A DNA stretch of 25,688 nucleotides from a virus (taxonomy: Duplodnaviria; Heunggongvirae; Uroviricota; Caudoviricetes): IMG/VR virus record IMGVR_UViG_2925939204_000005; one strand, given 5' to 3'. A model generated the notes under the pieces. It ran no database searches. It was not told where the DNA came from and saw nothing but the letters and a program-made list of their open reading frames with translations. Shown in pieces: positions 1,659-24,404 of the stretch. A program made the position numbers and the translations under genes. Every line of letters starts with the position of its first letter. Within the stretch, counting starts at the first letter, position 1.

Positions 1659-4130
1659 TTAAGAATCAGCCTGACTCGGGATCAGTTTTTGCCAGATAAC
1701 TGAAACGTATTTTGCCTGGTAACGGGCGTCATCAAGTGCATTATGGCGCTCACCTTCGAATGGAATAGCCGTTCTGGCATCGAAGTCTATGGCTTTCCCC
1801 AGCTCAACGATTGTGCGTACATCGCGATCGTTGTAGTAACGCCACGGGCAGGGGATCCCCTGCCGTTCGTATGAACGGCGCAAAATCGTGTTGTCGAAGT
1901 TGGCTCCATTTCCCCAAACCTGAACAAAAAATTCACCGGAGTTTTCGTCGATAAATTCCCGTAATTGTAACAGTGCATCATCTAACGGGATTTCATCGGT
2001 CATAATGGCAGATTGCGCTTCGCGTGATTGCTTAAGCCACCATTTAATGGTGTCCCGATCAATGACTCCGCCAGCAGTTTCCAGATCGATAGTCTTACTA
2101 AATTCCGGTCCCATATCTCCGGTTTGCGGATCGAAAAATATTGCACCTATTGAGATGATCGGGGCATCAGGATTTTTTCCCATGGTTTCAAGGTCGATCA
2201 TTAGATGGTCACACGTCCTGCTGGTAGATGTGATTTCGTGATGACCGTTCACCTTAATTGAGTGATCTGCCGTCTCGCCAGTTTCATTATCGCTATTGTG
2301 ATGCTGATTGCCGCCAGTGTTCTCCTTGTGTGGATGTTCAGCGCCTTCCATTTCCTCCGGATCATCTTCCTGAACTTCAACCTGATACTCTTCATCGAAT
2401 GTTTCTTGGTATGTTGCGTCGCCCATCACCGCGCCACAATCAGGGCAGTTGCCGCCGCCGGTCTGACCGCAGGCGGTGCAGACTTTTTCCACTTCCTGTT
2501 GCGCCACTGGTTCAGGCTGTTTCGTTTCTGGCTCGTTTTGTAACGCATTTGTGCTGTTTTGTTCCGCTTTTTGGTAGTTCCGTTCCGATTCATGCTGGTT
2601 CTGGTTCACAGAATCGCGGGTCTGGATCCCCTTAACCCATTTCGGATCATTCGGGTCACTAATCCCTTCAACAAATTCACCACGTGATGCAGCAAGCAAC
2701 TTATCGGCGTCAGGCTGGCTGATATTGGCTGCCTGCATAATTTTGTTTACTTCGTCAGCGGTAACTTTTATCGGCTCTGGTTGTTCTGAATCTTCAGCGG
2801 TATCTACATATTGCGGTAAGCCCGTGTATGTGCCATTTTTTCGGGCAAAATATTCTTCTTTTGTGATTTCAGTGGCGCCAGCAGCCAGTGCCTTATCCAG
2901 ACCAGAAAGTTTGTTTGCGCGACCGTATTTTTCTCCGTCCTTATCTGCGAAGAGGAAATAGAACGGCCCCTCACGCTCTACAGATGGTTCAGCTTCCGGC
3001 GCGGTTTCATTTTTTGGGATATCAGATACCTCAGTTTCCACTGCATCAGTTTGTGTTTCTGATGACTGGAGAACATCAACAGTGCCCAGGTCTGTTTCTT
3101 CATTCTCAAACACGCCCTTTGTCGTCAGGTATTCGCAGATATATTTGTTCAGTGCTATGGGATCTTTGTGAATGTCGATCGGACGCTCACGGACAAGGCC
3201 AAAAATAGTCTGGCGGTCGTAGCGAAGGGCATCAGGCTGTTTGCGCATTGATGCCGAGATACGCTTCCAGTCTTCGCGGTCGTTGTCGATAACTTCTTTT
3301 TTTGCCCAGCGATGGATGCTGCCGTCAATGTTTCCGGCATCCACATCACCAGGCCAGAGAGCGTAGGCCAGTTCGTCATCCAGTGTTTTCCATGTCTGCT
3401 TGTATTCGCGATGAATGGCAGCAATGACCGGGCTGATTTTTCCTGTTGAATTTTCAGTGTACTGTTGATTGGCTCTGGCGCGGGCGAGATCAACAACAGA
3501 CGTGTATTTTCCGGTTTCCTTGCGTTCACCTTCGCGACGTTTTTTCCAGATGCGCATCTCTGCCTGAATTTCGGGCCATTTAGCACCAGGAATACATTTA
3601 TGCTTAACCCACCCAATGGCGTGCAACTTAAGCTCCGGATACATGGCGTTAACTTCTGGCATTTTCATCAACGCTTCAACGATATGTCCGTCGAATGTTG
3701 CCATGTCTTCCTGCAACAATTCCTGTGCGCTAATAACCATATCAACGGTGATGTTTTCACATGTGTCGAACTTAACCATGACAGCGTTCTGTACTTCAGG
3801 GGCCAGCTTGTCAAAAGTGACGTTCATCGGATCGGATTCAGTCTCAACCGGGACAAAAGAAGCAGACTCCTCATCCCAGCGGTTTTCCTGCATATATTCA
3901 GCATCCCATGAATCGAGGGCAGGGCGGGGTATGCCAGGTTTATCCTCGCAGACAATAAATTTATAAGCGCAGTCCTGAGCAGCCGGATAATGTTCCAGGA
4001 ACTGCCAGTGAAATTTTGCTCGAGCACGGCGTTCGTCGCCAGCTTCAATGGCTGTGGCTACAGCCACAGCGCCTTCTTCCCTTGTTGCCAGTTCGTCAGG
4101 AATAGCGGCGCAAATAAAGACTTTACTCAT
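1659..4130 (-). CDS. Large early-left protein (823 aa) with C-terminal DnaQ-like DEDDh 3'-5' exonuclease domain; positional counterpart of YdfE / 'exodeoxyribonuclease VIII-like' proteins of lambdoid prophages
   Basis: C-terminal about 180 aa contain the Exo I (MIDLETMG), Exo II (WGNGANFDNTIL) and Exo III (HNALDDARYQAKY) motifs. Central acidic low-complexity region and a CxxC...CxxC zinc-ribbon-like motif (CTACGQTGGGNCPDCG). Lies between xis and ydfD like ydfE in Qin. Confidence 0.75.
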   Translation of the reverse strand: MSKVFICAAIPDELATREEGAVAVATAIEAGDERRARAKFHWQFLEHYPAAQDCAYKFIVCEDKPGIPRPALDSWDAEYMQENRWDEESASFVPVETESDPMNVTFDKLAPEVQNAVMVKFDTCENITVDMVISAQELLQEDMATFDGHIVEALMKMPEVNAMYPELKLHAIGWVKHKCIPGAKWPEIQAEMRIWKKRREGERKETGKYTSVVDLARARANQQYTENSTGKISPVIAAIHREYKQTWKTLDDELAYALWPGDVDAGNIDGSIHRWAKKEVIDNDREDWKRISASMRKQPDALRYDRQTIFGLVRERPIDIHKDPIALNKYICEYLTTKGVFENEETDLGTVDVLQSSETQTDAVETEVSDIPKNETAPEAEPSVEREGPFYFLFADKDGEKYGRANKLSGLDKALAAGATEITKEEYFARKNGTYTGLPQYVDTAEDSEQPEPIKVTADEVNKIMQAANISQPDADKLLAASRGEFVEGISDPNDPKWVKGIQTRDSVNQNQHESERNYQKAEQNSTNALQNEPETKQPEPVAQQEVEKVCTACGQTGGGNCPDCGAVMGDATYQETFDEEYQVEVQEDDPEEMEGAEHPHKENTGGNQHHNSDNETGETADHSIKVNGHHEITSTSRTCDHLMIDLETMGKNPDAPIISIGAIFFDPQTGDMGPEFSKTIDLETAGGVIDRDTIKWWLKQSREAQSAIMTDEIPLDDALLQLREFIDENSGEFFVQVWGNGANFDNTILRRSYERQGIPCPWRYYNDRDVRTIVELGKAIDFDARTAIPFEGERHNALDDARYQAKYVSVIWQKLIPSQADS

Positions 4131-5867: not shown

Positions 5868-6275
5868 TTATCTTTTATTTGTCCGCTGACGGGCTTTTAG
5901 TAATTCTTCAAAGAGTTTATTGAAGTTTTTTACTCGAGCTCGCATTTCGGCGAGCTGGGTATCCTGTTCTGATTCTGGCAGTGCATTAAACAGCTCAAGG
6001 AGCTCTAGTTCTTTGGGGGATAAGGCAACTGGCTTCTCAACAGGTGGTGTTGGTTGCTTGTCTTCATCGCCAAATAGAATCCATGTTGGTGAGCATTGCA
6101 ATACTTTGCTGAGGGCAAAAAGGTTCTTCCCTGTAGGTTCACTATCATCCCGTTCCCATTGTGATACAGACACATGGGAGATTTTCAGGGCTTTAGCAAG
6201 AGACCTTTGGGTGTGTTTGAGGTTTTTCCGACGATACCTAATGCGTTCGCCGATAGTTAAATTTTTTGTTTCCAT
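5868..6275 (-). CDS. dicA: HTH-type repressor DicA (Xre/cI-like, 135 aa)
   Basis: ORF 5868..6275 with an N-terminal Xre-type HTH (QRSLAKALKISHVSVSQWERD); sequence recognised as DicA; divergent from the dicC-like gene. Confidence 0.9.
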   Translation of the reverse strand: METKNLTIGERIRYRRKNLKHTQRSLAKALKISHVSVSQWERDDSEPTGKNLFALSKVLQCSPTWILFGDEDKQPTPPVEKPVALSPKELELLELFNALPESEQDTQLAEMRARVKNFNKLFEELLKARQRTNKR

Positions 6276-7094: not shown

Positions 7095-8040
7095 ACGCCC
7101 ACTGGTTATAAACACGCAGCTGGCAATGAAAATTGGCTTAAACGAAGCCATTGTTTTGCAACAACTGCACTACTGGTTGAGAGATACCAACTCCGGCATG
7201 GAATGTGATGGTGTTCGCTGGATTTATAACACAACGGAACAATGGCTGGAACAGTTCCCATTCTGGTCAGAGTCAACGTTAAAGCGCGCGTTTGCAAGTC
7301 TGAAAACGCTGGGGCTTTTGCGTTGTGAAAAGCTCAATAAATCAAAGCGCGATATGACCAATTTCTACACGATCAACTACGGGAGCGAGCTTTTAGATGG
7401 TGGCAAATTGAGCGAATCCATCGGTTTAAAATGCGCCGCTCCATCAGGTCAAAATGACACGATGGAAGAGGTCAAAATGAAACGCTCCATTGGTTCAAAA
7501 CGACTCAATGTCATCGGGTCAAAATGGCCTGATGATCTTACAGAGAATACAACAGAGATTACTACAGAGAATAAAAAGACTTCTCGTCCGGAAGCTTCGC
7601 AACCGGACCCGCAGACGGTTGAACAGGATTTTTTAACCCGACACCCTGACGCGGTTGTGTTCAGTGCGAAAAAACGCCAGTGGGGCAGCCAGGAAGATTT
7701 GGCGTGTGCGCAGTGGATCTGGGGGCGAATCGTGAGTCTTTACGAGCAGGCCGCCAGCGATGATGGCGAGATTTCGCGACCGAAAGAACCCAACTGGACC
7801 GCATGGGCCAACGACGTGCGCACAATGCGGATGCTGGATGGCAGAACTCACAGACAAATTTGTGAAATGTTTGGTCGGGTGCAGCGGGATCCATTCTGGG
7901 TAAAAAATATCATGAGTCCGTCAAAGCTTCGCGAAAAATGGGATGAACTGGTTATCCGCCTGGGGCGTTCGTCTGTACAGCGTTGTGTGAATCATATTTC
8001 TGAGCCGGATACCGAAATTCCGCCGGGCTTCAGGGGGTAA
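7075..8040 (+). CDS. Phage replication initiation protein (O-like replisome organiser)
   Basis: N-terminus (MSLLFAERPLVINTQLAMKIGLNEAIVLQQLHYWL) resembles the N-terminal domain of phage replisome-organiser proteins. The ORF-track start at 7021 is TTG; the ATG at 7075 is preferred. Position downstream of the cro-like gene. Confidence 0.65.
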   Translation: MSLLFAERPLVINTQLAMKIGLNEAIVLQQLHYWLRDTNSGMECDGVRWIYNTTEQWLEQFPFWSESTLKRAFASLKTLGLLRCEKLNKSKRDMTNFYTINYGSELLDGGKLSESIGLKCAAPSGQNDTMEEVKMKRSIGSKRLNVIGSKWPDDLTENTTEITTENKKTSRPEASQPDPQTVEQDFLTRHPDAVVFSAKKRQWGSQEDLACAQWIWGRIVSLYEQAASDDGEISRPKEPNWTAWANDVRTMRMLDGRTHRQICEMFGRVQRDPFWVKNIMSPSKLREKWDELVIRLGRSSVQRCVNHISEPDTEIPPGFRG

Positions 8041-8080
8041 GTGTTAATTTCTGGTCATGAGGTAATTTTCAGGAGGGCTT

Positions 8081-8503
8081 GTGGCAAAAGTTTTTACACA
8101 AGAAGAGCGGGAAAAAATTAAAGGGCAGGTTGTTGAACTCGTACGCCGGAGTGGGCGTGAGACGTTACGGCAACTGGAAGTCAAGACAGGTGCGACAAGA
8201 TATCTGATGAGCGTTCTCGCAAGAGAGCTGGTTGCCAGCGGCGATGTATACAACTCTGGTTACGGGTTATTCCCGTCTGAACAGGCGCGTAAGGACTGGC
8301 AAAATGCCCGTAAAAAGCTCTCAAGGGCAAAGCTGAAGGAACCATCTGCGGTTGATCCGGACCTTATCTGGTCATTACCTGACGGAGAAATACGTCGCTA
8401 CGACAGGCGTCAGAACATAATCTGTCGCGAGTGCCGGAAGAGTGAAGTTATGCAGCGCATACTAGCATTCTATCAGGGAAATGCTCGATATTTATTGAAG
8501 TGA
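8081..8503 (+). CDS. Hypothetical protein (140 aa)
   Basis: GTG start at 8081 preceded by AGGAGGG SD. Basic protein with a CxxC motif (CRECRK); no helicase-loader signature, so it is not an obvious P/DnaC analogue. Confidence 0.5.
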   Translation: MAKVFTQEEREKIKGQVVELVRRSGRETLRQLEVKTGATRYLMSVLARELVASGDVYNSGYGLFPSEQARKDWQNARKKLSRAKLKEPSAVDPDLIWSLPDGEIRRYDRRQNIICRECRKSEVMQRILAFYQGNARYLLK

Positions 8504-8755
8504 TGAGATTAAAGTTTATTAGTTCAGATATTGATTGGCTCTTTTGTGGAGTAGGGTAGAGTTAGTGTGTTTGTCTGCTTGGTGCCAGCAGCGGATATGT
8601 TTAACAACAGAAAGCATTCAGCATGGTTAGTGGGTTTGCAAAGTGGATTAGGATTTGAGAAACTTTGATGAAGTTGTAAAGCTTGTTTCTATAAAAATAG
8701 AAATTTAACTAATAGTTAAACACACCTCCAGCTTCATTGAAAAGGATTATTAGCT

Positions 8756-9655
8756 ATGATTGATCCACTTATTAGAAACTTACAGAGTGATATTGCACTA
8801 CTCCAGCTTTATATCGCGCAACGCAAACAGGCAGGCTTTCATGACATGGAAAGAATAATTGAGTCATTGACCATCTTTATGTTTCGCGCGCTGAAAATGG
8901 GTGAACTGGTAAACATGAATCAGATTAAAGTTAATTTTCCCGCCATTGATTTAGCTGATAATAAAAACATGATAGCAGTTCAAGTTACTACGAATGCAAG
9001 TCCAGCAAAAATTAAAAAAACTATCGAATCTTTTGAGAAAATAAATGAAATAGGAGAGAGTCTGAAAGATAAATACTCTACTTTATATATTTTTGGTTTT
9101 TGTAAAGCCTCAAGATACCTAACTCCAAGTTATTGTAAAATAATCGACCCCAGCTATTTCGTGAATGAACTTTGCGATAAAGCAGATGAAGATATGGTCC
9201 AGGATATGATTGACGCCATTCGACGCCATCATGATTATACATCATTACATCCATGGAGTGATAAAGATTCACTCGAAATTATACTCAATATTATTAATCG
9301 CAATGCAATAAAACATCGGATGAGTTGCGAAGGCAGTCTGTCTGATATGCTCACTGGTTTAAAAGAAATTAATGAAGTAATTACAAAAGGAACAATTCAA
9401 CGTAAGCAACGTTCAAAATCGATATCTGACTTCAAAGATCAAAGCATGGTGAAATTTATGAGAGGTGTAATGGATGATTTGTCTGTTATTCAAGCCATAG
9501 TGAACAAATCTAAAGTTAACCAAGGTGATATGGTTTATATAAGCCATGAAGATATGATTAATATTGATAAATTAAAAGCTAAAATAGCAAGTGATTCATC
9601 AGAGATTGCAAGGCTAAATAATATTGATATAACACTAAATGTTGTTGATTTATAA
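8756..9655 (+). CDS. SMEK-domain-like protein (299 aa), candidate defence/abortive-infection cargo
   Basis: AT-rich gene with AAGGA SD. N-terminal region (NFPAIDLADNKNMIAVQVTTNASPAKIKKTIESF) matches my recollection of the SMEK domain (PAID-LAD ... IA-QVT). C-terminal about 170 aa have no recognised motif. Confidence 0.6.
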   Translation: MIDPLIRNLQSDIALLQLYIAQRKQAGFHDMERIIESLTIFMFRALKMGELVNMNQIKVNFPAIDLADNKNMIAVQVTTNASPAKIKKTIESFEKINEIGESLKDKYSTLYIFGFCKASRYLTPSYCKIIDPSYFVNELCDKADEDMVQDMIDAIRRHHDYTSLHPWSDKDSLEIILNIINRNAIKHRMSCEGSLSDMLTGLKEINEVITKGTIQRKQRSKSISDFKDQSMVKFMRGVMDDLSVIQAIVNKSKVNQGDMVYISHEDMINIDKLKAKIASDSSEIARLNNIDITLNVVDL

Positions 9656-9969
9656 TTGTCGATTTAGCAAAACAGAGAATGCTTTGAAAGTTTCACCGAG
9701 AAATATTTATTGTGAACCTCCTTATTGTTTATCGACTTTTACTCTCCGCTCATTGCAGTACTGTCGGAGAAGGCTACTATGTACAAGAAGCAGCTAACAT
9801 AAGCGAGCATCACTATTGATATTAGGAAGAGTATATAAAAACTTCATGCTGAACCTTACAAAAGTAGGTAAACCGGCAATGGCCTAAGTGGCAGGGTCAT
9901 GTTGATCCGGCAATGCCGAGCTAATAATTAACAAGCAAATCACTCTTTCTAATAATTTGTTGAAATAAA

Positions 9970-10629
9970 CTAAATATGTATATGTTTACCAACAACCACA
10001 TATGAACTACCTGCTTTGCTCCATGATTTTATTATTTCTAAATTATTATCTGAGCATATTTTACTTACAGTATCCACATCTAATAAACCATAGTAGAAAG
10101 CATTACGAGAGTTTTGGTATATATACCCATGCAAATGTTTAATACCGCTCTCGTACCTCTTGAAATAAGAACTTTTGTATTGATTGACAATCAGTGCTTC
10201 ACCATCACTCTTTAATAATTCTCTAATCGCACTGAGGACTTTGTGAATTGTGGATTCACATGGAATTGCGGAAAGCACGTTTGCGCAAAGTATGAAATCA
10301 TAATGATTTGTTATTTTATCTATATTTTCATAAGAAACAATATTAGCATTCTTATAGTTATTTATCACGTAATCTGGAATCGTGGTTTGTACACCTCTGA
10401 TAATTTGCACTCTTTCTAGTTGTCTTCTGGAATCTAAAAATGTCACAGTTTCAAATTTATTTACTAATTGTTCTGAATATCTAAGTTTTCCACATCCAAA
10501 ATCAAGGGCATTGCCATTTTTATTAGTGCTTTCAATCTGTTTACAGAGATAGTTAGATGGCATAGTGTGCGGTTTCGCTGCATTTTCTGAACGTATGTTT
10601 ATTCCATTTATTTTGTAATTCAAAATCAA
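9970..10629 (-). CDS. Class I SAM-dependent methyltransferase (about 217 aa)
   Basis: Motif I LDFGCGKLRY, acidic residue ending beta-2 (VTFLDS) and motif-II-like DFILCANVL. The ORF-track start at 10629 is TTG; a TTG at 10623 with GAGG 6 nt upstream is an alternative. The gene starts 6 nt after the upstream membrane-protein stop, suggesting an operon. Confidence 0.65.
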   Translation of the reverse strand: MILNYKINGINIRSENAAKPHTMPSNYLCKQIESTNKNGNALDFGCGKLRYSEQLVNKFETVTFLDSRRQLERVQIIRGVQTTIPDYVINNYKNANIVSYENIDKITNHYDFILCANVLSAIPCESTIHKVLSAIRELLKSDGEALIVNQYKSSYFKRYESGIKHLHGYIYQNSRNAFYYGLLDVDTVSKICSDNNLEIIKSWSKAGSSYVVVGKHIHI

Positions 10630-10635
10630 CCTCGT

Positions 10636-11331
10636 TTAAAAAATATTGTTATTGTTAAAGAATTCTTTTATTTTGCTATCAGGTATTTGTCTTACTTGGC
10701 TTTCTGTTCTTGGTTTAACTGATGCTATGAAAATAAGGAAGTCAAATGCGACAAGAGAAATAATCCACAACCAAAGATTAATTAAAGAGCCAGTAACAGA
10801 GAATATATTTGTTAATTTGGCGATACTTATTATTAAAATAGTAACAAATGCGATTACTGTATGTTCAAAGAAAACCCAAAAGTAATAAACTTTGTTCCAG
10901 AAAAGTTCAACGTAATGTTTGTCTTTTAACTCTTTAACTTCTGGGTAATACAGTTTACTCATTACCTTGTGAGATTCATCAGTAGTTAATTTTCTCGTAA
11001 CGCCTGCAATTTTTGCTAATGGTTTAATAATTAAATGACTATCCCACATCTTCCTTATTCCAATAATTTTTGCTACATTATTATGTAGATCTAAAGCTCC
11101 ACTAATTACTGACCAAAAAACTGAAGATGCAATTGGTAATATGCCAAAGGTTAATATCCATTTAATAAATTCCTCGTAGTCTTTAACGGGGGGGATATAC
11201 TTGGCATTAATGCCAACCAATGGCATGTAGCCATAAATGACTAATGATAGGTAAAATATAAATGTAGTAATAAAAGTCGCCTTATGGAGCATAGGCAACA
11301 TTTCATTATAACTCTTTGGTGGTTCTAACAT
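10636..11331 (-). CDS. Integral membrane protein (about 231 aa, about 4 predicted TM helices), unknown function
   Basis: ATG at 11331 with GGAG SD (the ORF-track start at 11343 is TTG). Hydrophobic stretches at about residues 20-45, 65-85, 150-180 and 190-215; AT-rich codon usage; first gene of a two-gene operon with the methyltransferase. Confidence 0.6.
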   Translation of the reverse strand: MLEPPKSYNEMLPMLHKATFITTFIFYLSLVIYGYMPLVGINAKYIPPVKDYEEFIKWILTFGILPIASSVFWSVISGALDLHNNVAKIIGIRKMWDSHLIIKPLAKIAGVTRKLTTDESHKVMSKLYYPEVKELKDKHYVELFWNKVYYFWVFFEHTVIAFVTILIISIAKLTNIFSVTGSLINLWLWIISLVAFDFLIFIASVKPRTESQVRQIPDSKIKEFFNNNNIF

Positions 11332-12073
11332 TTTACTCTCCAAACACTCAAAAAAAAGCTAATCTTCTATAATAACGAAATTCAGCTGGCACAATTAAAG
11401 ATTAATTGCCACCAATTTCTTGATTTTATAATTTTATCTAAATGTTTTTGATTAATCTAGTCCTAAAAGAAACCTACTGCATAAATATTTATGCTGATGA
11501 CCCACTCCCTGTTCGTTAACACATAGCAACGTTAGTAATGCATCCTAAGTGATCAATATTTTTGCTAGCTTCATCTGCTCGCTCAAAGGGAACTATAATG
11601 TTGGCTTGCGTGTGACTTGGCATGTTTAAAGAAGTGCTGGTGGTGACTGGTTGCTGTTTTCCATTTCCACAGAACAAAATCATAGAAACTATACCCAGTA
11701 GTTGTATTGAATCACTGACGAGACAGCCTCATATTTATCAGGACTGGTGTACGTCCAATACAGGAGGTTGTGGTGCTGGTTCTCAAATGTGCGCTGGCTA
11801 TTGCTGCTGTAATGGCAATTTATTGTCTTGCTGTTGTTCTTATGGATCACCTTTCTGATTGATTTCATATTGGCGAGGTAACGGTAGTTAAGTAGAATTG
11901 CTGCGGGTGCTTGAGGCTATCTGCCTCGGGCATCAACACCAAAGGCAGATAGAGAAAAGCCCCAGTTAACATTACGCGTCCGGCAAGACGCTTAACATTA
12001 ATCTGAGGCCATATCTATGCTCTACACACGTAGGTTAGCCTCTTACGTGCCGAAAGGCAAGGAGAAGCAGGCT

Positions 12074-12229
12074 ATGAAGCAGCAAAAGGCGATGCTAATC
12101 GCCCTGATCGTCATCTGTTTAACCGTCATAGTGACGGCACTGGTAACGAGGAAAGACCTCTGCGAGGTACGAATCCGAATCGGCCAGACGGAGGTCGCTG
12201 TCTTCACAGCTTACGAACCTGAGGAGTAA
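12074..12229 (+). CDS. hok: Hok-family type I toxin (51 aa; HokD/RelF-like)
   Basis: MKQQKAMLIALIVICLTVIVTALVTRKDLCEVRIRIGQTEVAVFTAYEPEE: single TM helix followed by the conserved Hok periplasmic tail; AAGGAGAAG SD upstream. The ORF-track start at 12017 is an in-frame upstream extension. Confidence 0.85.
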   Translation: MKQQKAMLIALIVICLTVIVTALVTRKDLCEVRIRIGQTEVAVFTAYEPEE

Positions 12230-12298
12230 GAGACCCGGCGAGGGAGAAATCCCTCGCCACCTCTGATGTGGCAGGCATCCTCAACGCACCCGCACTTA

Positions 12299-12329
12299 AC
12301 CCGCTTCGGCGGGTTTTTGTTTTTATTTT
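12299..12329 (+). terminator. Rho-independent terminator downstream of hok
   Basis: AACCCGCTTCGGCGGGTTTTTGTTTTTATTTT: GC-rich hairpin (CCCGC/GCGGG) with a TTCG loop followed by a T-run. Confidence 0.65.
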
Positions 12330-22090: not shown

Positions 22091-22671
22091 TGGCATTCAG
22101 AATGAGTGAACAAGCACGGACCATAAAAATTTATAATCTGCTGGCCGGAACTAATGAATTTATTGGTGAAGGTGACGCATATATTCCGCCTCATACAGGT
22201 CTGCCAGCAAACAGTACCGATATTGCACCACCAGATATTCCGGCAGGCTTCGTGGCTGTTTTCAACAGTGATGAGGCATCGTGGCATCTCGTTGAAGACC
22301 ATCGGGGTAAAACGGTTTATGACGTGGCTTCCGGCGACGCGTTATTTATTTCTGAACTCGGTCCGTTACCGGAAAATGTTACCTGGTTGTCGCCGGGAGG
22401 GGAATATCAGAAGTGGAACGGCACAGCCTGGGTGAAGGATACGGAAGCAGAAAAACTGTTCCGGATCCGGGAGGCAGAAGAAACAAAAAACAGCCTGATG
22501 CAGGTAGCCAGTGAGCATATTGCGCCACTTCAGGATGCTGTAGATCTGGAAATCGCAACGGAGGAAGAAATCTCGTTGCTGGAAGCCTGGAAGAAGTATC
22601 GGGTGTTGCTGAACCGTGTTAATACAACAACTGCACCGGATATTGAATGGCCAGTAGCACCTATAGGGTAA
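22090..22671 (+). CDS. Tail fibre assembly protein Tfa (193 aa)
   Basis: ATG overlaps the stf stop (TAATG); conserved C-terminal motif [29 protein letters not shown]. Confidence 0.85.
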
Positions 22672-23259
22672 ATTCGTAATGATTACCTAAATACGTTATT
22701 CTTTTGTTCAAAAAGTGATTTTGCTATAGGTAGGGAGTATGTTCTTGGATTAAGAATAAAAATCGCCATGAAAGAGCTTCATGGCGAGTACATAAACGTA
22801 CAAAATATGATGAAAGTAGAGTGGCGTAAGCCACTATATTAAGATATGACAATAGCGAAGAAAAGTAAATAACATTTTATGGGCGTTTAATTGTCAATTA
22901 TAAAAACTAGAGTGCCCGATATTGTTTATCTTGCTTTAAAATAATGTACTCAAACCAAATTTTTGAGCTAAAAGCTCAAATAATATAAATGCAATGATAA
23001 TGTTTAATAAGACAATTAGCTTGCTTTGTATTTTCATTTCGGAATACTGTTAAGTAACTTTGATGACACTAACAATAGATCGGAATTTTCTTAGAGTCAA
23101 TGGTCACTGTTTTTGCTTGCAAAGCAAATGTTTTTGGTGGTTATAAGTTTTCTTAATATAGTCACCTATGCAACTTGTTCCTTGTGGAGATTAAAGGTTA
23201 AAATTTAATGCGAAGATGGAATTATAATATATTTTTTTATAATTAATTTAACCTTAACA

Positions 23260-23358
23260 TCGTTGCTGGCGGCATGGAAGAAATATCGGGTCTTGCTGAT
23301 GTCGTGTTGGCACTTCCTTAGTGCGGTTATCGAATGGCCAGCTGTACCTGTGGGGTAA
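23260..23358 (+). pseudogene. Fossil tfa 3' end (C-terminal about 33 codons only)
   Basis: Aligns by eye to the 3' end of tfa (22566..22671) and translates to [32 protein letters not shown]-stop. No upstream tfa body; AT-rich flanks. Confidence 0.6.
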
Positions 23359-24014
23359 AAACTTTATATGGGTGCTATTTTTATAATAGCTGGTAAAAAC
23401 TGGCCGAACTGAAATTCACTGTTGATAAAAAAGATGTGTTTGAGTGTATGTCATTGTTTTCTTAATGGAATCCACTAGAATGCAGCGAATTTAAGAAGGT
23501 GGGTTTTTATTGGAATATAAACTACAATAATGCTCAACTCGTTCGTAGAATTGTTTTTTCTTATTTTTTGGAATGCTAACCATTATATGCATTATGGGGG
23601 CGATACTTCCTGATAATTTACATGATGCATACATTGAAGCAATAAATTCAATATCATTGTCATCAAAGTTAAAGCTTTCTCCGTCCATTTCAATTCCTTA
23701 TGTGTTTGGCACAACTGATGCTGTATCCCATGAGAATTTATGCAAGTTGTTATGTTTGATTTGATATTGCAATGATAATTGTAGCTAATTGTTTTCAATT
23801 GAGTGAAAGTTTATTTCGAGTGATTAAGTCGAAAAAAAAGATTTCTCACGGTTAGTAAGCGTATTAGGTTAGTATTCAGATATGAATGGTATTAATGACT
23901 AAATTTTCAATCATATATGGATTTTTATGCTGATGAAGATGTTTTATTTGGCGATTCGTCAAGCATCTTCACTTAAGTAATCGTATATTTTAAGAGTGCA
24001 AAAGAGAAAGGGAC

Positions 24015-24115
24015 AACGTTGCTCGCACTCTGGATTAAATATAGGGTGTTGTTAAACTGCGTTGATACATAATTGTACCGGATATTGAGTGGTCTGAAGT
24101 CCCAGTCATTAAGTA
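24015..24115 (+). pseudogene. Second fossil tfa 3' end (frameshifted)
   Basis: Nucleotide similarity to the tfa 3' end; translates in two frames to TLLALWIKYRVLLNCVDT-stop and VPDIEWSEVPVIK-stop. Confidence 0.55.
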
Positions 24116-24404
24116 ATCGTTTCGTGATATGCCGCAGAAACGTTGTATGCAATAACGTTCTGCGGTTGGCTGATGCACTTTCGAGAGTGTATTGAATAAT
24201 TTCAATCCGTTATTGTTTTTACGCGTAACACCATGAAAAGACTGCTTATCTGTTGGGGTATTTTTTGGGGCATATATGGGACAGAAATAGGCCACAGATA
24301 GATAGTAAGATCGAACTCAGGATGCTTTTGAAAAAATGTAACTATCTGAAAAAACCTAGAAAGCGCCAAGGAAACCACAGAATGAGAAAAAACATCTGTG
24401 AATT

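Follow-up and report, generated by a model that had tools for sequence, protein, structure and literature searches.

A probable defence islet made of two separately mobile modules in the DUF977-hok cargo slot of a Qin-like Escherichia coli prophage

Prophages of the lambdoid family carry accessory genes that differ between otherwise related elements. In this paper we describe one such set of genes in the viral record IMGVR_UViG_2925939204_000005 of IMG/VR; the window, as used below, is the whole stretch of 25,688 nucleotides that was analysed. The source is an E. coli prophage of lambdoid, Qin-like type, and positions 8000-12300 are 100% identical to strain AR_0119, in which the gene order is int-xis-exo-dicB-dicA/dicC-ydaT-repO-DUF977, the island studied here, and hokD-rem-DUF968-Q-lysis. 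The island holds three genes, one for a SMEK-domain protein and, convergent to it, two for a homologue of the K-12 membrane protein YmfE (Kunado) and for a YmfD-like methyltransferase that depends on S-adenosylmethionine (SAM). We consider it likely that this is a horizontally acquired defence islet, probably silenced by H-NS, which occupies a hypervariable slot between the Ren-like DUF977 gene and hok/sok and consists of two independently mobile modules that would often travel together as a single 2.9-kb cassette.

GC content was computed in 500-nt windows and per feature, and GC at third codon positions (GC3) per gene. Windowed GC was 0.49-0.51 at 7500-8500, 0.30-0.36 at 8501-11750 and 0.44-0.50 past 11750. 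By feature, the values were 0.49 for the DUF977 gene, 0.33 for the SMEK gene, 0.315 for the methyltransferase gene, 0.306 for the membrane protein gene and 0.52 for hok, with 0.31-0.37 in the three intergenic stretches of the island, and GC3 was 0.27, 0.26 and 0.28 in the island genes versus 0.48-0.56 in the flanking phage genes. The original prediction, made from the letters of the sequence, had described an abrupt switch to AT-rich DNA at about 8.5 to 11.6 kb with three genes in two convergent units, and windowed GC, GC3 and the layout of open reading frames (ORFs) all agree with it. The block that it drew from 8504 to 11620 is real, but the ends of the cassette are sharper, at 8577/8584 and 11488/11497.

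These ends are constant between copies. A cassette with the same ends was aligned by blastn at 83-87% nucleotide identity, with differing flanks, in the loci L002, L207, L209, L210, L211 and L212; it is also found in E. coli A42, where it is inverted relative to the replication genes, and on a 348-kb plasmid of Citrobacter koseri, and the copies keep their ends across four left contexts and two right contexts. Homology to lambdoid backbones ends at 8482 (HannyBb) or 8606 (Tritos) and resumes at 11575 (Tritos), 11730 (HannyBb) or 12060 (K-12 Qin). Of the 5,426 complete E. coli genomes searched, 4,827 have the flanks and 151 have most of the island, all 151 with all three genes; no deposited phage genome carries the island. 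Horizontal acquisition, as first proposed, is supported by this distribution and by the finding of copies with unchanged ends in other backbones and in reverse orientation, and the three genes did not prove to be a conserved core of related prophages with a housekeeping phage function. In some strains, NZ_CP196743, NZ_CM135826, NZ_CP100906 and NZ_CP151038 among them, the island is broken by ISApl1 or IS3-family insertions, and in L170 and L214 the SMEK gene is matched in two overlapping pieces, suggesting a frameshift; both observations suggest that the island is occasionally inactivated. A second, partial copy of the membrane protein gene (88-93% identity) lies about 1.1 kb past the first in L101/L189/L200 (IMGVR_UViG_2547132281_000005) and in L186; it stretches the slot to 4.7 kb and suggests either a partial duplication or the remnant of a second cassette.

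The two modules are also found apart, and it is the loci bearing one module only that define the limits given in Table 1. Viral contigs with the YmfE/YmfD pair alone match at 80-85% identity, one of them with a different convergent gene in place of SMEK, and in pair-only loci the upstream region stays with the pair, up to 11479-11495. Loci with SMEK alone match at 69-82% identity, and about 180 nt of upstream DNA is carried along with that gene. The convergent units of the original prediction are therefore retained here as two separable modules and not as one three-gene unit. If the trio were instead one obligate three-component system, for example a membrane sensor, a modifier and a nuclease effector, one would expect what is seen in the cassette itself, where gene order and ends are constant in at least four variants at 13-17% nucleotide divergence, in different backbones and on the Citrobacter plasmid, and where no island-bearing E. 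coli genome (0 of 151) lacks any of the three genes. We regard such a system as unlikely, since the pair occurs without SMEK at all divergence levels examined (e14, P2-like prophages, Vibrio, Pseudomonas and viral contigs), SMEK occurs without the pair in at least six contexts, and ymfE alone is reported to be protective (bioRxiv 10.64898/2026.09.05.749240).

Over 232 of 235 residues the membrane protein shares 60% identity with YmfE of the K-12 prophage e14 (E=1e-108), and the YmfE family profile also retrieves members from Vibrio and Pseudomonas (E=1e-52 to 1e-75). Its hydropathy segments lie at residues 24-45, 62-84 and 152-212, the last corresponding to two helices, and an AF2 model (pLDDT 87, pTM 0.81) has helices at 12-36, 54-84, 142-178 and 187-218, so that four transmembrane (TM) helices are predicted. 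Between TM2 and TM3 is a charged helical domain (residues ~85-150), which is probably cytoplasmic because K and R are in excess. The AF2 model gave no informative structural neighbours, and the protein matched no family in Pfam, NCBIfam or PADLOC. The close YmfE family is small, with 38 clusters among 5.8 billion; against 1.84 billion representatives the profile retrieved 215 proteins at E<=1e-3, of which just 15 reached E<=1e-30, and ten of these members, searched against Pfam, gave no family above threshold. A scan of genome contigs for the membrane protein returned five loci only, three of them on short contigs filed under unrelated taxa (a metagenome-assembled genome, Haemophilus and Streptomyces) that are taken to be contamination.

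For these alleles the case for defence is drawn from homology and from genomic context. In a preprint of 11 September 2026 the product of ymfE is named Kunado and is suggested to block DNA entry: deletion of hns unmasks an e14-dependent resistance, resistance to T5-like phages needs ymfE, the deletion of which restores infectivity in the hns mutant, and cloned ymfE guards against phages of differing receptors without blocking adsorption; in a screen of e14 deletions, lit and ymfE were the only hits reported (bioRxiv 10.64898/2026.09.05.749240). The original prediction had pointed to nin regions as hot spots for anti-phage and accessory morons and could place no counterpart of the three genes in Qin, lambda or phage 21. 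The anti-phage idea is supported by homology for the membrane protein only, and K-12 does have a counterpart of the membrane protein and the methyltransferase, the gene pair ymfE-ymfD, which belongs to e14 and not to Qin. We propose that the first module is a two-gene operon whose four-TM YmfE homologue would exclude superinfecting phages after adsorption, most likely at DNA entry; T5-like phages, those excluded by the K-12 homologue, may be among its targets. The locus of the membrane protein, prophage-borne and with a GC of 0.31, would be a candidate for silencing by H-NS.

The second gene of this putative operon appears to be translationally close-coupled to the first and to encode a cytoplasmic protein. 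A TTG start at 10623 lies 12 nt past the stop of the membrane protein gene and has a GAGG Shine-Dalgarno sequence 6 nt upstream. The RefSeq model, of 197 aa from an internal ATG, omits the N-terminal RSENAAKPHT, a family-invariant motif; this motif and the TTG start with its GAGG indicate a methyltransferase of 217 aa, a length found in other records. Pfam matches were to Methyltransf_12 (35 bits, cut-off 30) and Methyltransf_23 (34.2 bits, cut-off 27), and conservation within the family is strong, its LDFGCGKLRYS and FxDS motifs being invariant. The protein resembles methyltransferases of small-molecule or protein types (TehB, NodS, Methyltransf_12/23), and in the PDB it comes closest to TehB and to a protein lysine methyltransferase (E about 4e-3). 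PADLOC lists neither the membrane protein nor the methyltransferase, the latter giving only a weak match to mad2, and the ymfD literature yielded no function.

At every YmfE-relative locus examined (16 loci in one set; 27 viral loci) a methyltransferase gene comes next, about 10-55 nt on, and the coupling is still seen where identity has fallen to 35-40%, in a cassette array of Vibrio cholerae and in Pseudomonas, where the pair abuts HamA/HamB (Hachiman). Elsewhere the pair is found directly after ogr in P2-like prophages (Enterobacter, Providencia) and in a relaxase-bearing element, and in e14 it adjoins lit. We infer that the two proteins are a unit. Because the pairing is conserved, it suggests that YmfD acts with or on the membrane protein, or extends its function; YmfD itself is probably not the restricting activity, because the e14 deletion screen of the preprint returned lit and ymfE only.

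Two other roles for the methyltransferase were weighed. It could be the protective DNA methylase of a restriction-modification-like unit with SMEK as the endonuclease, and a protein of restriction-enzyme fold convergent to a SAM methyltransferase is indeed a layout common in Type II systems. Searches for DNA methylase families (N6/N4, C5) gave no Pfam or NCBIfam match at E<=0.1, the (D/N/S)PP(Y/F) motif is absent from both the sequence and the family alignment, and the protein fits class I families of the small-molecule/protein kind only; moreover, SMEK stands alone in many genomes without such a methylase. We reject this highly improbable reading: the methyltransferase is no DNA methylase, and the gene to which it is coupled is that of the membrane protein, not SMEK. 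Alternatively, the pair could be a moron for lysogenic conversion or physiology that modifies a lipid, quinone or envelope precursor, with resistance as a side effect. The nearest families are small-molecule methyltransferases, relatives are called UbiG-like in JGI records and sit among metabolic genes in the Vibrio cassette array, and coupling to a membrane protein with a sizeable, presumably cytoplasmic helical domain would suit the presentation of a substrate at the membrane. This, too, seems to us quite unlikely, given that cloned ymfE is reported to protect with adsorption unaltered (bioRxiv 10.64898/2026.09.05.749240), that defence genes dominate the genomic neighbourhoods, and that a ymfD knock-out has no growth phenotype (PMC12096079).

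The second module of the proposed islet consists of one gene and its own upstream region. The SMEK protein has an N-terminal Mrr-like PD-(D/E)xK domain (~residues 5-130) and a C-terminal helical domain. It matches SMEK_N (PF21941 / NF033859) with 79.9 bits in Pfam (cut-off 27) and 105.1 bits in NCBIfam (cut-off 30), and a profile of 54 relatives finds PDB 26bh_D, the Mrr domain of Kordia jejudonensis Mrr-APAZ, at E=3e-13, with a shared NFPAID...(V/I)A(V/F)Q(V/I)T...K signature. The N-terminal domain has the core fold of restriction endonucleases, and E36, D65, Q76, T78 and K85 are invariant in the 54 sequences, whereas matches of the C-terminal half were to generic helical bundles only. In short-Argonaute systems the SMEK/Mrr domain is described as the nuclease effector (PMC10810196, PMC12205087). 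A short-Argonaute (SPARDA-type) reading of the present locus was rejected, as SMEK_N alone was detected and no PIWI/APAZ gene is among the annotated neighbours. We suggest that SMEK may be a stand-alone nuclease effector in which the helical domain senses a signal or gates the activity.

This family of about 300 aa is conserved over its full length in Gamma- and Betaproteobacteria. Its neighbours are Lamassu LmuB and an AAA_15/21 pair in Citrobacter, Abi_alpha in Vibrio, SLATT_5 in Pseudomonas, and AbiGi, ArdC and an N6/N4 methylase in a Yersinia conjugative element; in Enterobacter and related islands they are integrases and resolvases together with SymE and TacAT, and in a Pantoea P4-like satellite the gene adjoins the primase. 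The neighbours vary, as is typical of defence islands, and the YmfE/YmfD pair is absent from all six of these contexts. A 219-aa gene 3' of SMEK in Pseudomonas was considered as a relative of the methyltransferase and is not one.

The slot itself is a site of frequent replacement. In other prophages the interval between DUF977 and hok holds AbiH, SIR2, DUF4209 or DUF5677, DUF7167, QueH with a methyltransferase, NUDIX with HAD, an alpha/beta hydrolase, or an FRG-domain protein (Tritos), and 43 distinct slots represent no fewer than 12 size classes, from 1.5 to 7.3 kb. That the nin region is a hot spot was part of the original prediction, and the variety of this cargo, which includes several known defence genes, supports it. 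The further claim that relBE takes the position upstream of hok in Qin is right for K-12: there relBE lies beside hokD, and the window becomes homologous to K-12 only from 12060 on. No match to the RelE/RelB families was found in Pfam among the island proteins.

A conserved hairpin motif lies at the slot edges. Its consensus, ATGTCCGCTT-TGTGCCAG-AAGCGGACAT, is 28 nt long and consists of a 10-bp inverted repeat with an 8-nt conserved asymmetric loop. The left copy is the sole significant match to our covariance model R1 in the window, and none of 100 shuffles matched; the degraded right copy was not picked up by R1 at E<=10. Homology with the Tritos backbone resumes inside this right copy, which stands where the other slots would place it: in most of them the distance to mok/hok is a constant ~434-464 nt. 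Copies of the hairpin were found in at least 120 viral contigs; there are 71 distinct versions, whose flanks are unrelated on either side. It is also present in 3,718 of the 5,426 E. coli genomes in 1-6 copies, plasmids and CP4-like islands included, and is mostly intergenic. Within DUF977-hok slots a plus-strand copy lies 70-99 nt past DUF977, and most slots with other cargo have an inverted copy before mok/hok with the variable genes between the two, as in Tritos (L027 2066-2104 on the plus strand and 3866-3904 on the minus strand); large slots have internal copies. In L055, which has at least four copies, arrays of same-strand copies separate single cassettes (a CAP12-type TIR protein, a GNAT acetyltransferase), and L066 and L002 have further copies between genes. 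The left breakpoint of the cassette falls in the hairpin loop (flank, then GCCAnnAGCGGAYAT) in 4/4 contexts. In K-12, ydfV (L026 5898-6203) overlaps a copy at 5975-6013 (35.8 bits), about 100 nt from relB; this ORF may be spurious or may contain the motif.

Several identities for the hairpin were tried and rejected. It lacks the consistent GTTRRRY of an integron attC site, and around the copies examined the annotation shows no integron integrase. It was not called as an intrinsic terminator by the terminator scan, and ATTG-type sequence follows the stem; in L055 a canonical terminator stands immediately upstream of one copy. As a covarying RNA structure it scored counts no higher than shuffles, with C-A mismatches exceeding T-A at the variable pair. 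Compared by eye, it does not fit the consensus sequences of sigma-54, CRP, LexA and Ogr sites. Searches of the literature for its sequence strings found no description of the motif, and an Rfam scan of the window returned sok as its sole match, with none for the hairpin or the island. The leading ideas are a site of recombination or cassette exchange and a protein-binding site. A bolder version, which we put forward as a tentative and rather doubtful proposal, is that the hairpin serves enterobacterial prophages and other mobile elements as a dedicated site of cassette exchange, at which recombination in the loop swaps or inverts the cargo, and that the methyltransferase is integral to Kunado. 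If this were true, inverted or tandem copies would punctuate accessory and defence cassettes with an integron-like logic that uses no known integrase, two of the immune cassettes open to such exchange would be the YmfE/YmfD pair and stand-alone SMEK, and the methyltransferase would be an integral and overlooked part of Kunado.

A number of points weigh against a defence islet of two independent modules. The evidence on Kunado comes from one unreviewed preprint and concerns a protein 60% identical to the one studied here, and the preprint does not mention ymfD (bioRxiv 10.64898/2026.09.05.749240); the methyltransferase may thus be unrelated to defence. A YmfE homologue is absent from all of 50,697 deposited phage genomes, and the genes may serve the lysogen in ways beyond defence. 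Stand-alone SMEK is not a PADLOC system and matched only the pAgo-associated REase model, and its catalytic motif is atypical, D65, Q76-x-T78 and K85 standing in for a canonical (D/E)xK, with threonine T78 at the position expected for lysine and K85 seven residues on; judged from the sequence, catalysis is plausible and the lysine may have been relocated, and activity is not assured. Finally, the trio travels together in several diverged variants, and the modules may depend on each other in function more than a two-module reading allows.

Table 1. Position, strand and basis of assignment for features of the island and its flanks (window coordinates)
Feature	Position	Strand	Basis
DUF977 / Ren-like exclusion protein gene, left backbone flank	8081..8503	+	Pfam DUF977 E=2e-30; PHROG 142 'Ren-like exclusion protein' E=3e-46
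Conserved hairpin motif, left slot edge	8566..8604 (core 8571-8600)	+	Covariance model R1, 39.7 bits, E=1e-12
Mobile three-gene cassette, 2.9 kb	8577..11497	.	Single blastn alignments with constant ends
SMEK module	~8577-9815		Loci bearing one module only
SMEK-domain protein, 299 aa, candidate stand-alone nuclease effector	8756..9655	+	
Convergent intergenic spacer between modules	9656..9969	.	Module join at ~9815-9890, where homology of module-only loci is lost
YmfE/YmfD module	~9887-11497		Loci bearing one module only
YmfD-like class I SAM-dependent methyltransferase, 217 aa	9970..10623	-	68% identity to K-12 YmfD; Pfam
YmfE (Kunado)-like inner-membrane protein, 231 aa	10636..11331	-	Homology, hydropathy, AF2
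Upstream non-coding region of the ymfE/ymfD-like operon, presumed promoter, 31% GC	11332..11497	-	
Degraded inverted hairpin copy, right slot edge	11568..11596	-	Alignment with the intact Tritos copy (L027 3866-3904, 24 bits)
hok/sok/mok type I toxin-antitoxin locus, right backbone flank	11905..12229	+	Rfam sok, Pfam HOK_GEF

The flanks of the slot belong to the prophage backbone. The DUF977 gene is the final conserved early-right gene ahead of the variable cargo; of 80 viral loci, about 40 have it on the upstream side. On the right, Rfam sok matches 11905-12079 (114 bits, E=2e-26) and Pfam HOK_GEF matches the translation of 12017-12229 (E=5e-22); a weak Rfam match to the small RNA isrK is found just 3' of hok, at 12238-12319 on the plus strand (25.7 bits, gathering score 50). 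The backbone DNA between the slot and sok contains a cysteine-rich ORF of 78 aa (11622-11858, plus strand; …CCCNGNLLSCCCSYGSPF) that has no RefSeq annotation. A consensus scan of the island found promoter and terminator sites no commoner than in shuffled sequence, with no terminator-like site in the spacer between the modules, and a PHROGs search returned nothing useful for the island genes. The right end of the prophage has a second AT-rich stretch (22500-24400, GC 0.29-0.37). It is flanked by a tail-fibre assembly gene and a truncated gene for an MFS transporter and has short ORFs only, including one of 65 aa at 23491-23688.

The components are of kinds already known, a Kunado/YmfE-YmfD homologue and a SMEK-domain gene in a prophage hot spot. 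Beyond prior descriptions are the invariable methyltransferase partner, the candidate for a stand-alone SMEK defence gene and the framing of the slot by hairpins. With this island Kunado gains a second natural allele, which lies in another prophage and at another site. Any mechanism of Kunado must explain the SAM methyltransferase, because in the loci examined across the Gammaproteobacteria the membrane protein is never parted from it. Stand-alone SMEK, with about 300 aa, offers a candidate for defence by a single gene and occurs in P4-like, prophage, conjugative-element and defence-island hot spots, and hairpin framing with breakpoints inside the motif, if general, would help to predict where defence genes are swapped in E. 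coli prophages.

Among known systems the closest is Kunado of e14, which shares with the island the full-length membrane protein (60%), the methyltransferase (68%), the gene order and the near-abutting arrangement, as well as a place in AT-rich prophage cargo beside other conflict genes, lit in e14 and SMEK and hok here. The two differ in site, a Qin-like DUF977-hok slot here and the att-proximal end in e14, and in partner gene, SMEK here and lit there; and Kunado as published is the single gene ymfE, whereas among our loci it was never seen without the methyltransferase. RexAB of lambda is a prophage-expressed four-TM membrane protein with a cytoplasmic partner that protects the lysogen. The pairing of a four-TM protein with a cytoplasmic partner is alike in both; there is no kinship in sequence or fold, the partner here is a methyltransferase, and YmfE is reported to exclude phages after adsorption, whereas RexAB acts by abortive depolarisation of the membrane.

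For SMEK, the SMEK/Mrr-APAZ proteins of short pAgo systems have a homologous N-terminal domain, but the island has neither an APAZ domain nor an Argonaute gene, and the C-terminal half of its protein is helical without a specific fold match. From Mrr-type or Type IV nucleases and AF1548-like PD-(D/E)xK proteins it differs in that threonine invariably takes the place of the lysine in the (D/E/Q)xK triad, while a lysine seven residues further on is invariant, and in having no recognisable DNA-recognition domain. The slot, for its part, resembles the variable accessory-gene hot spots of temperate phages (P2/P4; the nin/moron regions of lambda) that were reportedly described by Rousset and co-workers in 2022 and Juhala and co-workers in 2000: conserved genes stand on either side of alternative cargos of many kinds, which include several known defence genes, and modules related to those of the island are also found in P2-like and P4-like hot spots. 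Unlike these, the slot described here is bracketed by inverted copies of a 28-nt hairpin, with breakpoints inside the motif.

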